Shown piece after piece: positions 17,134 through 58,422 of a stretch of 64,000 nucleotides of DNA (its first letter is position 1; every line of letters starts with the position of its first letter). A program made the position numbers and the translations under genes. The notes under the pieces are model-generated. The model was not told the DNA's origin. It saw nothing but the letters and a program-made list of their open reading frames with translations, and ran no database searches. This DNA is from Vicinamibacteria bacterium (lineage in GTDB: Bacteria; Acidobacteriota; Vicinamibacteria; Marinacidobacterales; Marinacidobacteraceae). The stretch spans positions 1,024,001-1,088,000 of the forward strand of contig CAXXLQ010000004.1 of the NCBI GenBank assembly GCA_963668695.2, in the 5' to 3' direction.

Positions 17134-17327
17134 CTAGCAGCTGGTGGACAAAGTAACGCGAGCACCGAGGCCGGTGAGGCGTCCGTCTGACAAGGCGCAA
17201 ATCGGGAGGCATACCGAGTGTATTCCGACCGATTTGCAACGCAGAGCGCCAGTTCTCCCGGTGGGGGGCGGTCAGATGGAATGCATCGCCGGTCGAAAGC
17301 CGGGATACTTTAGGCACGGGCTGCTGA
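17134..17327 (+). mobile_element. Palindromic MITE copy 2 (divergent, with compensatory changes; one 19-nt insert)
   Basis: ctagcagctggtggacaaagt...ctgacaaggcgc...atac-cgagt-gtat...gcaacgc...cacgggctgct. Confidence 0.7.
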
Positions 17328-17414
17328 CACCGAGACGAGGCTCGAACGGGCCTTCCGGACGCCTTCCGCGCTAGCCTCGCGGATGAACACAAAACGACTG
17401 ATTGGAGAAACCAC

Positions 17415-17747
17415 GTGAGTCATTACTACGACGACCACGATCTGTCCCGGTTCGGCGAAATGGGCCGTAACGCACCAGACCTCTGGGAGAAATTCAACGC
17501 TTGGTACCAGGCCACCTTCCAGGAGGGCTCGCTCACCGGACGGGAGAAGGCATTGATCGCGCTGGGTGTCGCCCACGCCTTACAGTGCCCCTACTGCATC
17601 GACGCCTGGTCGCAGGAGTGCCTCGAAAAGGGTTCGAACCTCGATCAGATGACGGAGGCCGTCCACGTCGCGGCCGCCATCCGGGGCGGGGCGGCGCTGG
17701 TCCACGGCGTCCAGATGCGGAAACGCAACGCCCAGTTGAGCATGTAG
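17415..17747 (+). CDS. Carboxymuconolactone decarboxylase / peroxidase-like protein of the ArsS-associated type
   Basis: YY...DL..F...REKALIAL.VAHALQCPYCID...AAIRGGAALVHG; RBS ggaga. Confidence 0.85.
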   Translation: MSHYYDDHDLSRFGEMGRNAPDLWEKFNAWYQATFQEGSLTGREKALIALGVAHALQCPYCIDAWSQECLEKGSNLDQMTEAVHVAAAIRGGAALVHGVQMRKRNAQLSM

Positions 17748-17759
17748 GGCGGCGGTCCG

Positions 17760-18779
17760 ATGGAAGCCCTGCTCGAACTCCCCACCCGTAACGCGCACTT
17801 CGCCCCGCGGCCGTCCGAGACGCGGTTCCCGTCTTTCAATTCGGCGCTTGCCCGCCACGGCCTTCATCCCCTCCGTGCGACCGGGATCGAGATCTTCCAG
17901 ATCAACGTGGGCAAGCTCTGCAACCAGACCTGCCGGCATTGCCACGTCGACGCCGGACCGGACCGCACCGAACGGATGACCCGGGAAACCGCCGAGGCCT
18001 GTATGGCGGCCCTGGAACGGACAACCGCCACCACGGTGGACATCACCGGCGGCGCGCCCGAACTGAACGAGAACTTCCGTTACCTGGTGGACGCCTCGCG
18101 AGCTCGCGGGCGCCACGTGATGGACCGCTCCAACCTCACCGTGCTCCTGCTTCGTTCCCAATCCGACCTCGCCCAGTTCCTCGCCGACCGCGAAGTCGAA
18201 GTCATTGCCAGCCTCCCCTACTTCCTGGCGGAACGCACCGATGCGCAGCGGGGAGCGGGCGTCTTCGACAAATCCATCCGCGCGCTCCAGCTTCTGAACC
18301 GCCTCGGCTACGGCCAGGGCGGCTCCCTGCGGCTGCACCTCGTCTACAACCCCACCGGGGCGTTTCTCCCAGGAGACCAAAACGCCCTCGAACGGGAGTT
18401 CAAGCGCGAACTCGATCGGCGCTTCCAGATCCGATTCGATCGGTTGTACGCGATCACCAACCTGCCGATCAGCCGTTTCCTGGATTTCCTGCTCGAGACC
18501 GGCAACTACGAGCGATACATGGAGCGGCTGGTCAACGCCTTCAACCCGGCAGCCGCAAGGGCAGTGATGTGCCGAGACACTCTTTCGATCGGCTGGGACG
18601 GGCAGCTCTATGACTGCGACTTCAACCAGATGTTGGACGACACCGTGGGGTTTGGCGCACCCGCCCATCTCCGGGATTTCTCCCCGGAACTGTTGGAGAC
18701 GCGGCGCATCGTGACCGGCCTCCACTGCTACGGCTGCACCGCCGGGGCTGGCTCGAGCTGCGGAGGAACCACCGCTTGA
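17760..18779 (+). CDS. arsS: Arsenosugar biosynthesis radical SAM protein ArsS family
   Basis: QINVGKLCNQTCRHCHVDAGP (CxxxCxxC), YDCDFNQML and C-terminal HCYGCTAGAGSSCGG. Confidence 0.88.
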   Translation: MEALLELPTRNAHFAPRPSETRFPSFNSALARHGLHPLRATGIEIFQINVGKLCNQTCRHCHVDAGPDRTERMTRETAEACMAALERTTATTVDITGGAPELNENFRYLVDASRARGRHVMDRSNLTVLLLRSQSDLAQFLADREVEVIASLPYFLAERTDAQRGAGVFDKSIRALQLLNRLGYGQGGSLRLHLVYNPTGAFLPGDQNALEREFKRELDRRFQIRFDRLYAITNLPISRFLDFLLETGNYERYMERLVNAFNPAAARAVMCRDTLSIGWDGQLYDCDFNQMLDDTVGFGAPAHLRDFSPELLETRRIVTGLHCYGCTAGAGSSCGGTTA

Positions 18780-19873
18780 GGCGGACGGCGCGGGCGGCGG
18801 TGCTGCCTGCGCCTGGCCGACCCGTCGAAATCCGGGAGGTTCCCGTCCCGGACCCGGGACCCGGGGAAATCCTGCTGGAGACCCTCGCTTCCGAGGTGTG
18901 TGGCACCGATGTCCACCTCCGGGAGGGTCGTCTCGCCGGAGTTCCTTACCCGATCATTCCCGGCCACGTCAGTGTCGGCCGGGTCATCGAAACCGGCGGA
19001 GTATCCAAGGACGCCGTCGGGAATCCACTGGCGCTCGGAAGCGTGGTGTCCTTCTTCGATGTCCACGCGACCTGCCACGCCTGCTACCAGTGCCTGGTGG
19101 CGCGCCAGCCGAATCGCTGTCCGTCGCGCCGGGTGTACGGCATCACCTATTCCGCGGACGAGGGGCTGCTCGGAGGATGGGCGGACAACATCCTGCTCCT
19201 TCCGGGAGTCCGGACCGTGGTCCTGCCTGACGAACTCTCGGTGGACGACCTCATCGGTGGCGGCTGCGGCCTGTTCACGGGATTTGCGGCGGTGGACCGC
19301 GCCGAGATCCGGCTCGGTGACAGCGTCGTGGTGCAGGGCGTCGGTCCCGTAGGTCTGGCGGCCATCGCTTTCGCCCGGACCTCCGGCGCCGGAACCATCG
19401 TGGCGGTCGGCGAGCCAGCGGCGCGCCGTGACCTCGCGCTCCGCATGGGCGCCGACGACGCCCTCGCACTCTCGGACAGCGATTCCGAGGGACGGGCGGA
19501 AGCGGTACGAGCGGCAACCGCGGGGCGTGGCGCCGACTTGGTGATCGAGGCGAGCGGCAACCCCCTCGCGGTCCCGGAAGGCTTCGCCATGCTCCGCGAC
19601 GGCGGCCGCTACGTCATTGTCGGCCACTACACCGACGCCGGGAGCGTTCCGGTGAACCCCCATGTGGACATCAACCGAAAACATGCGGAGGTCCGGGGCC
19701 AGTGGGGCAGCGAGTTCCACCACTGGACCCGGGCGCTCGACACGCTGGTCCGCTATCGGGACCGCATCCCCTTCGCCTCGGTGATCGGCCGCCGCTACCG
19801 CCTCGAGGAGGCGAACCAGGCGCTCGACGACGTCGAGGCGCTCCGGGTGACCAAGGCGATCATCGTTCCCTGA
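18776..19873 (+). CDS. Zinc-dependent alcohol dehydrogenase
   Basis: CGTD, GH, structural Zn CHACYQC...C and G.GPVG; 4-nt overlap with arsS. Confidence 0.88.
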   Translation: MRRTARAAVLPAPGRPVEIREVPVPDPGPGEILLETLASEVCGTDVHLREGRLAGVPYPIIPGHVSVGRVIETGGVSKDAVGNPLALGSVVSFFDVHATCHACYQCLVARQPNRCPSRRVYGITYSADEGLLGGWADNILLLPGVRTVVLPDELSVDDLIGGGCGLFTGFAAVDRAEIRLGDSVVVQGVGPVGLAAIAFARTSGAGTIVAVGEPAARRDLALRMGADDALALSDSDSEGRAEAVRAATAGRGADLVIEASGNPLAVPEGFAMLRDGGRYVIVGHYTDAGSVPVNPHVDINRKHAEVRGQWGSEFHHWTRALDTLVRYRDRIPFASVIGRRYRLEEANQALDDVEALRVTKAIIVP

Positions 19874-19906
19874 CCGGTTTCGCGCCCGGGCTCGGAGCGG
19901 GCGCGG

Positions 19907-56997: not shown

Positions 56998-57015
56998 GCG
57001 GCACATTCTACGACT

Positions 57016-57734
57016 GGCAGCCTTTCGACAAAATGGCGTGAGCGCCGAGGCCGGCGAGGCGCCCGGCTGACAAGGCGCGCGAGGGAGGAATACCGGGTGT
57101 ATCCCGACCGAAACGCAACGATGAGCGACGCGGTGAACAGCCGGTGGTGGAACCCACGTGAGCGCCGAGGCCGGCCAGTCCTCCCGGTGGGGGCGAGGCC
57201 CAGTTCTCCCGGTGGGGCCAGTCCTCCCGGTGGGGGCCCGGCTGACAAGGCGCGTGAGGGAGGAGCCCCCACCGGGAGAACTGGCCCGGGTGTATTCCGA
57301 CCGAAACGCAACGATGAGCGGCGCGTAGCGACGCGGTGAACAGCCGGTGGTGGAACCCACGTGAGCGCCGAGGCCGGCGAGGCGCCCGGCTGACAAGGCG
57401 CGCGAGGGAGGAGCCCCCACCGGGAGAACTGGCCCGGGTGTATTCCGACCGAAACGCAACGATGAGCGGCGCGCAGCGACGCGGTCAGCCGGGATGGATC
57501 GCCAGCCGAACGCCGCGCGGGTTTCATCACCGGTTGTTTGGCCGGGATGGATCGCCGGCCGAGCCCCCACCGGGAGAACTGGGCCGCGGGGGTTTCATCA
57601 CCGGTTGTTTGGCCGGGATGGATCGCCGGACGAGCCCCCACCGGGAGAACTGGGCCGCGTGGGTTTCATCACCGGTTGTTTGGCCGGGATGGATCGCCGG
57701 CCAAACGCCGCGTCATTTTGTCGACAGGCTGCTG
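57016..57734 (+). mobile_element. Composite/nested MITE copy 8 (3 left halves, 4 right halves, seven 19-nt inserts)
   Basis: Outer ends gcagcctttcgacaaaatg / cattttgtcgacaggctgc; inner left ends at 57136 and 57339; right modules at a 71-bp period (57539, 57610, 57681). Confidence 0.82.
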
Positions 57735-57741
57735 ACGTTCG

Positions 57742-58164
57742 CTACTGCGCGTTCGCTTCTGCCTCCGCCGCTCTGACGCGCGCCTCCGCCCGCGCTACCG
57801 CGCGCTGCGCGCGCTCCACTTCGTAGCTGGCGCCGAACTCCTCAAGACGGGCCCTCGCACGGACGAGCGCGCTTTCGGCGCGCCCCAGATCGATGTCCTG
57901 GGGTCGCTCCGCGGTCTCGGCGAGCACGGTTACGGTGTCGTCCAGGATCTCCAGAAAGCCCCAGTGCACGGCCAGGAAGTGGTCCGCTTCCCCCTGCCGG
58001 TACTGGAGCCGACCGCTCCGGATCTGGTAGAGGAGCGGCGCATGGCCGGGGAGGATCCCGATGTAGCCGAAGACGCCCGGCGCCTCGACGTAATCCACAT
58101 CGTCCCGGAACACCACCCCGCCCGGCGTGATGACTTCGAGCCGAAGCTGTTCGGAGCCGCTCAT
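57742..58164 (-). CDS. atpC: ATP synthase F1 epsilon
   Basis: LEVITP, GILPGHAPL, GFLEI and ARAEAR. Confidence 0.95.
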   Translation of the reverse strand: MSGSEQLRLEVITPGGVVFRDDVDYVEAPGVFGYIGILPGHAPLLYQIRSGRLQYRQGEADHFLAVHWGFLEILDDTVTVLAETAERPQDIDLGRAESALVRARARLEEFGASYEVERAQRAVARAEARVRAAEAEANAQ

Positions 58165-58181
58165 CAGGACGCTCCTCTTTC

Positions 58182-58422
58182 GCAGTCTGTGGATGAAGTG
58201 CTGTGAGCGCCGAAACCGCCAGTTCTCCCGGTGGGGGCGAGGCGCCCGGCTGACAAGGCGCGCGAGAGAGGAATACCGACGAGTGTATTTCGACCGAAGC
58301 GCAACGATGAGCGACGTGAAACGCCAGTTCTCCCGGTGGGGGGGCGTTTCAGCCGGGATGCATCGCCGGTCGAGCCCCCACCGGGAGAACTGGGCCGCAT
58401 GACTTTGTCCACAGGCTGCTAG
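58182..58422 (+). mobile_element. Palindromic MITE copy 9 between atpD and atpC (three 19-nt inserts)
   Basis: gcagtctgtggatgaagt...actttgtccacaggctgctag. Confidence 0.82.

Follow-up and report, generated by a model that had tools for sequence, protein, structure and literature searches.

We found that a 19-nucleotide (nt) repeat with the sequence CCAGTYCTCCCGGTGGGGG, which we call E and after which C usually stands, forms a block with sharp boundaries that is inserted in the interior of other repeats in the genome of a Vicinamibacteria bacterium and, in one case, in a unique protein-coding gene. The window studied, 64,000 nt in length, corresponds to C4:1024001-1088000 of the assembly GCA_963668695.2 (G000 hereafter; 4.10 Mb, 67% G+C, 4 contigs). 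We regard E as a non-coding insertion module of 19-21 nt that is not autonomous. On balance, it is probable that E is an insert with the properties described below and that it is mobilized in trans.

An initial annotation of the window had listed 14 near-exact copies of E, all inside copies of a miniature inverted-repeat transposable element (MITE), at five or more internal positions, in both orientations and sometimes in tandem. All 14 were recovered, as the only matches with up to 2 mismatches, without any shift in position or change of strand (chance expectation, 0.01), and none of 100 shuffled sequences reached this number. Reading of the sequence confirmed that every full copy in the window lies inside the MITE, in both orientations, with one tandem, at five internal positions: site D (38806, 57175, and 58219), site C (the tandem 57200/57218), site A (57266 and 57414), the E-site (17249 and 58324), and site B (38954, 39025, 57564, 57635, and 58375).

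In the whole of G000, 1,613 copies of E were counted with up to 2 mismatches (816 on the + strand and 797 on the - strand), of which 1,123 were exact. After removal of assembly duplicates, 1,516 copies remained, including 1,050 exact ones. The most frequent 16-mers of the genome belong to E (about 1,325 occurrences, vs about 531 for the MITE core). The copies are evenly distributed along the chromosome and have no overall strand bias. Each of the 19 positions carries about 1.9 bits of information, position 6 (T/C) excepted; outside E, apart from G at -2, S (G/C) at -1, and C at +1, the flanks have less than 1 bit. The ends of E are CCAG... and ...GGGGG(C). As to the counts, the assembly is partly redundant: parts of C4 recur in contigs C1 (144 kb) and C3 (31 kb), and C4:3822138-3904344, 82 kb near the end of C4, is a repeat of C4:48320-130583. 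This duplication agrees with the contamination figure of 9.34% and inflates the repeat counts by about 6%.

The genome-wide context suggested for examination in the initial annotation is nearly all non-coding and inside other repeats. In a crude open reading frame (ORF) model that covers 73% of the genome, 252 of the 1,613 copies overlapped an ORF, and 189 of these were within 300 nt of its 5' end. An open frame of 240 nt on both sides of E with high third-codon-position G+C was found, among the 1,613 matches, in one gene only, doubled by the assembly duplicate. Almost all flanks are themselves repeated or resemble hairpins of the repetitive extragenic palindromic (REP) type, and E is nearly confined to the interior of other repeats. 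When flanks were screened for 12-mers with more than 3 copies, no E copy had both flanks free; the same screen with 14-mers let 16 copies pass, most of which still resemble diverged REP hairpins. Clustering of the flanks gave 88 context clusters, 55 of them singletons.

Filled and empty forms of the sites were found, for each site class, by anchoring 8-10 nt outside E. At site A, CCCGG-TAT-TCC was changed to CCCGG-G[E]C-TCC (102 filled and 146 empty for one anchor pair); at site B, CGGC-GT-TCGG to CGGC-[E]C-TCGG; at site C, GAGGC-G-CCCGG to GAGGC-[E]-CCCGG; at site D, GGCCGG-N-GAGG to GGCCGG-[E]C-GAGG; and at the E-site, AAGCG-ACG-CGG to AAGCG-[E]GG-CGG. The one example of such a pair that had been given previously, ggaggaATAccggg vs ggaggaG[E-]Cccggg, was correct. 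E also enters the stem of the REP hairpin GCYGG-TCTKMAGA-CCGGC (GCYGG^T^CTKMAGACCGGC) on either strand, where T is replaced by E plus C in both orientations; read in its own direction, E always lies immediately 3' of the GCYGG arm. The net gain is 18 nt at sites A, B, and C, at the E-site, and in the tandems, and 19 nt at site D and in the REP hairpin. Each insertion replaces 1-3 target bases and leaves no target-site duplication, and the junctions are uniform within each site class. The insertion points are located in or beside short G+C-rich palindromes and hairpins, as expected from the proposal of a structured target.

One E was found in a unique gene encoding an AcrB-family transporter of the resistance-nodulation-division (RND) type (ACR_tran, 802.6 bits), in which it lies in frame and adds GPHREN (six codons). 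It is present in G000 (both assembly copies) and in the closest relative, G001. Exactly 18 nt are absent in the 15 aligned orthologues (G002, G004, G008, G009, G010, G012, G013, G014, G018, G019, G021, G022, G023, G024, and G043), and four further orthologues have a shorter match length (783 vs 801). In G008, the empty site is CATCCCG-CG-CGGGCTC, at the midpoint of the palindrome CCCGCGCGGG. When filled, the site reads CATCCCG-CCAGTTCTCCCGGTGGGGGC-CGGGCTC, with a 20-mer in place of CG, and thus repeats the signature seen in the MITE (a 20-mer for 2 nt). This insertion arose on the G000/G001 branch. As E is in a unique gene of which 15 aligned orthologues do not have it, E can insert without the MITE or any other host repeat.

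The proposal that E is an ultra-small mobile or templated insert targeting a structured element is thus supported by the gain in the RND gene, by a site-B difference between orthologous MITEs, and by the presence of E in G023, a genome without MITE cores (the latter two are described below). Three amendments were necessary: most copies hitch-hike on MITE arrays, E also invades the REP-type hairpin, and the mini-hairpin attributed to the unit is not significant. E alone gave no significant fold on either strand (-1.9 kcal/mol, z -0.10), and 83 of 200 shuffled sequences folded at least as well. Pairs of E in opposite orientations, on the other hand, form 19-bp stems (z -5.04), and 144 inverted pairs at +-48 nt were counted in G000.

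With up to 2 mismatches allowed, E has multiple copies in 21 of the 28 family genomes (g1, 15/15; g4, 3/3; g5, 1/1; g2, 1/1), and the seven genomes of g3, g6, and g7 contain 0-3 copies. Across 21 other families of the class (223 genomes), E was at the level of a reversed-pattern control. Exact copies occur in genera g1, g2, g4, and g5, and also in metagenome-assembled genomes (MAGs) titled Candidatus Marinacidobacterium, Vicinamibacteria, or Acidobacteria from several submitters. Two single exact matches in other phyla are compatible with chance or mis-binning, and no E was found in the viral contigs searched. A dialect of E with two changes, CCGGTTCTCCCGGTAGGGG, recurs in genus g4 (G043) and has a few copies in G000; its 5' part is a perfect CCGG-TTCTC-CCGG hairpin.

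The initial annotation had named a library adapter or an assembly artefact as a possible source of the motif. The assembly does hold duplicated stretches, and no other support for an artefact was found. The junction between atpC and a MITE, including the E at 58219, occurs in the contigs of another study's run with 3 differences in 468 nt, exact E occurs in the MAGs of several submitters, and orthologous E copies are common to G000 and G001. The presence of E in the contigs of another study and in independent MAGs indicates that it is not an artefact, the probability of which we consider practically negligible.

The hosts of E differ between genera, and the ratio of E to MITE cores varies widely: G000 has 1,613 E and 637 cores, G010 has 19 and 96, G020 has 3 and 54, G018 has 380 and 27, and G023 has 80 and 0. 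Given this variation, E is an entity of its own and not a part of the MITE. When divergence was measured on copies ascertained by their flanks only, it was 0.60% in E vs 4.76% in the flanks at site A (n=297), and 1.23% vs 9.57% at site D (n=94). With exact copies in all four genera, the sequence of E is thus held constant across them as its hosts diverge.

A use for the cell would be one reason to keep such a sequence: E may be an uptake signal, like the DNA uptake sequences and uptake signal sequences (DUS/USS), or a protein-binding site, spread by biased uptake or conversion. The hyper-abundance of E, its equal numbers on the two strands, its even spread, its constancy across the family, and the frequent inverted pairs are consistent with this explanation, and ComEC is present in G000; ComEC is near-universal, and its presence is thus uninformative on uptake. 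However, E appears as an indel of 18 or 19 nt and not via point changes, is virtually absent from coding DNA, and sits almost only in other repeats. We therefore consider a cellular signal very unlikely.

The 1,516 non-redundant copies are distributed over MITE site B (322), site A (303), site C (362, including 142 that begin an 18-nt tandem), site D (198), the E-site (66), deletion derivatives of the MITE (20), REP-type hairpins (107), and other places (138); in total, 1,271 copies are in MITE sites. The host MITE is about 185 nt long (about 183 nt without E) and takes up E at five main and several minor internal positions. It is non-coding, is present in 614-671 cores, has terminal inverted repeats that pair in a rod, and falls in the 70-300 bp size range of MITEs. 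A copy without E in the window (42190..42372) takes the form of a long rod when folded (DNA, -51.4 kcal/mol, z -4.26; RNA, z -8.19). In the alignment of E-less cores, positions 27 and 60, 33 nt apart, covary as T-A/C-G (r2 0.70), with hardly any linkage in all other pairs; this covariation indicates a conserved stem with a compensatory pair (GCGT/ACGC). When replication-strand bias was examined by class (10 tests), the REP-form-1 class (p 0.003) and the 'other' class (p 0.005) were biased in opposite directions, which probably reflects the orientation of the hosts.

Comparison of G000 with G001 over 189 kb of aligned sequence (about 94-95% identity) revealed that most arrays are confined to one of the two genomes; a stretch of 565 nt with 9 E in one, for instance, corresponds to 34 nt with 0 E in the other. 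Similarly, the atpC-atpD spacer is 259 nt in G000 and 16-22 nt in G001, G002, G008, and G009. As the arrays are mostly all-or-none, the copy number of E grows mainly by movement of whole MITE arrays, and most of the about 1,500 copies were made by hitch-hiking on these fast-turnover arrays. Changes of E only were rare: one clean site-B indel distinguishes an orthologous MITE of G000 from that of G001, and one orthologous MITE core contains 0 E in G004, 1-2 in G001, and 4 in G000. In the latter, the four-E core of G000 has family-consensus alleles where G004 has minority ones, and conversion by another copy is thus possible. Furthermore, in several derivatives the left flank belongs to one E site and the right flank to another, and in one of them the whole MITE interior is replaced by a single E. 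These derivatives show deletions between E copies, for which E acts as a 19-bp handle.

A further possibility is that E has lost its own mobility, or scarcely ever had it, and is a static module of a mosaic repeat; a handful of ancient insertions would have been followed by amplification of the MITE and REP, gene conversion, and E-E deletion, and these would account for all variation seen today. Among 538 parsed MITE cores, all 12 combinations of the D, C, and A states were seen, and the r2 between E states was 0.001-0.052; the linkage between single-nucleotide polymorphisms was equally low, and thus linkage does not separate repeated insertion from conversion. The uniform junctions within each site class, the movement of whole arrays, and the alleles of the four-E core are also in accord with a static module. 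This explanation does not fit the RND-gene insertion on the G000/G001 branch, the 88 flank clusters with 55 singletons, the differences in hosts between genera, or the E copies of G023, which has no MITE core; on this evidence we consider it unlikely. Two points weigh against mobility of E: only two or three clean E-only events were found, and gene conversion among MITE copies could shuffle a few ancestral insertions.

The main rivals of mobilization in trans are this pure conversion of a few old insertions and template switching at palindromes. In the latter, copying would be enzyme-free: stalled replication or hairpin cleavage at a G+C-rich palindrome would lead to a microhomology-guided template switch onto a hairpin bearing E, and E would be pasted into the loop or centre. 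The location of the targets at palindrome centres or stem-loop junctions, the replacement of a few target bases without duplication, the variable gain (+18/+19), and the finding of no reverse transcriptase (RT), Y1 transposase, TnpB, or multi-copy insertion sequence (IS) in G000 are all in favor of such a process. Left unexplained are the borders of the block, which do not vary between unrelated contexts, the fixation of all 19 positions across four genera with diverging hosts, and the near-lack of E in G020, which has 54 MITE cores. Template switching thus seems rather unlikely to us.

We instead favor mobilization in trans. In this process, primary insertion of E would be rare and would occur by a strand-specific cut-and-join at short G+C-rich palindromes. 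A factor specific to the lineage, which would recognize the 19-mer as a whole, would carry it out in trans. The sole candidate seen for this factor is the REP-associated tyrosine transposase (RAYT; HUH/Y1 type) of the clade, whose own flanking REP hairpin is among the targets of E.

Y1_Tnp was detected in 15 of the 28 family genomes; these are 15 of the 21 genomes with at least 10 E, and none of the seven genomes with 3 or fewer. The proteins match the NCBIfam model REP_Tyr_transpos (NF047646) with 93.4 and 94.2 bits (cut-off, 80). At all seven RAYT loci examined, a two-hairpin REP element lies within 260 nt, and at three of the seven it lies on both sides in inverted orientation. The REP element that flanks the RAYT (GCCGG-TCTTCAGA-CCGGC) is the hairpin element that E invades. 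The loci are L189 and L190 (G001), L191 and L192 (G008), L193 (G014), L194 (G010), and L195 (G013), and the products are about 235-280 amino acids long, with one truncated. The flanking arrays consist of GGGAGCGCCGG-TCTTCAGA-CCGGCA.CGC, followed by a hairpin with a variable stem and then GAAAC; this second stem varies in sequence between copies and stays paired.

The initial annotation had suggested a search for a RAYT or RT gene flanked by the motif. None was found in G000, and the RAYT genes of the relatives are flanked by the REP hairpin. Several observations argue against the RAYT as the enzyme of E insertion. E does not by itself flank the RAYT at the seven loci, with a single flank containing E (in G014), inside the REP element. 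The gene is absent from G000 (no Pfam match; best tblastn E-value, 0.05; no RAYT at either G001-syntenic locus), and G004, G015, G018, G019, and G043 have no RAYT yet contain 19-819 E. Conversely, G010 has a RAYT, 542 REP hairpins, and 96 MITE cores with only 19 E. E has neither a GTAG/CGTC tag nor a significant hairpin. In addition, E replaces 1-3 nt of its target, but no target base is lost or gained in HUH transposition as it is known. Finally, as the family genomes are related and not independent, the association of the RAYT with E is weak evidence. The RAYT is our best candidate for the enzyme, and a tentative one. We are slightly more doubtful that E is the smallest DNA that an HUH/Y1 (RAYT-type) enzyme mobilizes. 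As such, it would be a cassette of about 20 nt without structure, excised and rejoined strand-specifically into the G+C-rich hairpins of the MITE and of the REPs that belong to the enzyme. If this were true, E would be a hyperparasite of the REP-RAYT system, outliving the loss of the enzyme by riding MITEs.

Profile searches of G000 detected no RVT_1, Y1_Tnp, or TnpB above the cut-off. A search for a multi-copy IS as a parent found none in G000, where the long repeats are tandem arrays or assembly duplicates. Retro-insertion via an RNA intermediate, as proposed for the small dispersed repeats (SDRs) of Nostoc, was also considered. It would be in line with the reported behavior of these repeats and with the strong folding of the MITE as RNA. 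However, RVT_1 was not found in G000 and is present in 4 of the 28 family genomes, two of which are E-poor, and we thus regard retro-insertion as extremely unlikely.

The closest analogues of E are the Nostoc SDRs and the REPs inserted in small palindromes. To our knowledge, there is essentially a single earlier description of mobile-like repeats of this size (about 20 nt), that in Nostoc. In 2008, Elhai et al. (Genome Res 18:1484) reportedly described SDR1-8 of Nostoc punctiforme, which are said to be 21-27 nt long, to have hundreds of copies, and to be nested in repeats, in minitransposons, and in themselves. SDR4-6 reportedly share a predicted secondary structure backed by compensatory changes, and the SDRs as a whole are said to be confined to a cyanobacterial subgroup. 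E is likewise a dispersed repeat of about 20 nt with hundreds of copies, nested in repeats and in itself and limited to one clade, and filled and empty homologous sites were found for it (the RND gene and the site-B indel). Its core of 19 nt (20-21 nt with flanks) is slightly below the reported range of 21-27 nt. E belongs to Acidobacteriota (class Vicinamibacteria) and is unrelated in sequence, and is thus an analogue and not a member. It differs further in having no significant secondary structure, in its in-frame insertion in a gene, and in the HUH candidate of its relatives, with no RT at hand. According to PMC4390886, SDR5 inserts precisely inside the HIP1 palindrome, as E enters short palindromes.

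According to PMC3733652, REPs are inserted in small CCGSSCC...GGSSCGG palindromes and in frame in ORFs, RAYTs are flanked by REPs (as a rule in inverted orientation), and a REP has a conserved GTAG (or CGTC) tetranucleotide at one end. REPINs are described in PMC3116915. REPs and REPINs are extragenic and hyper-abundant, supply the most frequent 16-mer of a genome, and form hairpins as inverted doublets. E resembles the REP/REPIN-RAYT system in being extragenic, highly over-represented, and the top 16-mer, in its inverted doublets that form hairpins, and in the RAYT of the clade with its inverted REP hairpins. In contrast, E is not a palindrome (a REP is a 20-40-nt imperfect palindrome), has no GTAG or CGTC at either end, does not flank the RAYT, is itself inserted into the REP, and is abundant in genomes without a RAYT.

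Bacterial interspersed mosaic elements (BIMEs) and MITEs with nested inserts are a further comparison: the intergenic arrays studied here are composites of a few modules in variable combinations, and the host MITE has terminal inverted repeats and a rod fold. E differs in that it is also found outside the mosaic, in a unique coding sequence and, in other genera, in different hosts. With DUS/USS and HIP1, E shares its copy density, strand symmetry, and family-wide constancy, and it differs from them in arising as an indel block and in avoiding coding DNA. A literature search for the motif found no paper in the library searched that contains it, and further searches found no paper linking Vicinamibacteria with MITEs and none for 'Marinacidobacterium'.

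Two possible sources were also examined and rejected. As a derivative of a tRNA or tmRNA gene, E has a best match with 4 mismatches in 20, and the CRISPR repeat of the genome (45 copies, period 61) is unrelated to E. In the window, Rfam models at the gathering score detected only tRNAs.

E is one of the smallest apparently mobile DNA units known, and an independent case, in another phylum, of a mobile-like repeat of about 20 nt. It offers many closed or near-closed relatives that span 0 to about 1,600 copies, a defined signature (a 20-mer for 1-3 nt at G+C-rich palindromes, with fixed polarity), one dated insertion in a unique gene, and a specific candidate enzyme accessible to tests with oligonucleotides. 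It also reshapes the genome: its copy number is more than double that of the next repeat, it creates 19-bp inverted repeats, it drives deletions inside MITEs, and it can add six codons to a protein.

In the window, the first copy of E is exact and lies at 17249..17267 (+) in the E-site, the loop between ...gcagagcg and ggcggtcag. Its host, a MITE copy read directly (17133..17327, +), is a variant with terminal inverted repeats of the GTGGACAAAGT type. The partial copy noted previously near 21668 does exist, as a truncated E (GCCCCACCGGGAGAA; 21668..21682, -), and its host is a REP-type hairpin element (about 21618-21690) and not the MITE.

A composite MITE with two right-arm units (38770..39072, +) contains an E with 1 mismatch at site D (38806..38824, +; after GCCCGG and before CGAGGCG), an exact E at site B (38954..38972, -; right arm, between ccga and gccgcg), and an E with 1 mismatch at site B of the second right-arm unit (39025..39043, -). 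At the orthologous place (38798-39046 of the window), G001 is minimal, with only the two terminal inverted repeats joined (56 nt). Just upstream of this MITE, an ORF of 133 amino acids (38246-38647, +) has sub-threshold matches to a zinc ribbon and to Cas12f1-like TNB (20-22 bits); it is the sole weak TnpB signal, below the cut-off, in the genome search. The E-less MITE at 42190..42372 (+) corresponds in G001 to terminal repeats around a single E, which takes the place of the whole interior (42222-42345).

The array at 57016..57735 (+) is composed of three MITE cores and four right-arm units of 52/71 nt; E is missing from core 1 and from the first and the last of these units. Core 2 contains an E (C variant) at site D (57175..57193, +), two E arranged head to tail as an 18-nt tandem, the T variant before the C variant, at site C (57200..57236, +), and an E at site A (57266..57284, -), which forms a 19-bp inverted repeat with 57218-57236 (hairpin, -24.7 kcal/mol, z -5.04). 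Core 3 has an E at site A (57414..57432, -), and two successive 71-nt right-arm units have an E at site B (57564..57582, - and 57635..57653, -). A 59-nt contig from an RNA library spans tandem E, which is no demonstration of transcription. The Logan contigs of sequencing runs break off within the repeats.

The MITE at 58182..58421 (+) fills the atpC-atpD spacer and contains three E: at site D (58219..58237, +), the junction also present in the contigs of the independent study's run (X5); at the E-site (58324..58342, +), in the loop of the stem GAAACGCC/GGCGTTTC; and at site B (58375..58393, -).

Among the other repeats of G000, C4:2329554-2330693 (L185) comprises about 30 tandem copies of a 33-nt unit (ggtccccgcgatacggagtatccccggcg...) in a long open frame that matches no Pfam family. 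Two more tandem arrays, about 1.6-1.8 kb in size and ORF-less, C4:574312-576071 and C4:2554259-2555871 (L186 and L187), are built on GAACATGTCGC(W)CTAGCG alternating with two constant spacers; as the spacers are invariant, these arrays are not CRISPR-like. The CRISPR array of the genome begins at C4:3280875 (45 repeats, period about 61), near a Cas1 gene (C4:3284095-3284739), and a separate 53-nt tandem array (CAGCGTGGAGTTCC...) lies beside it at C4:3276750-3278130 (L196).

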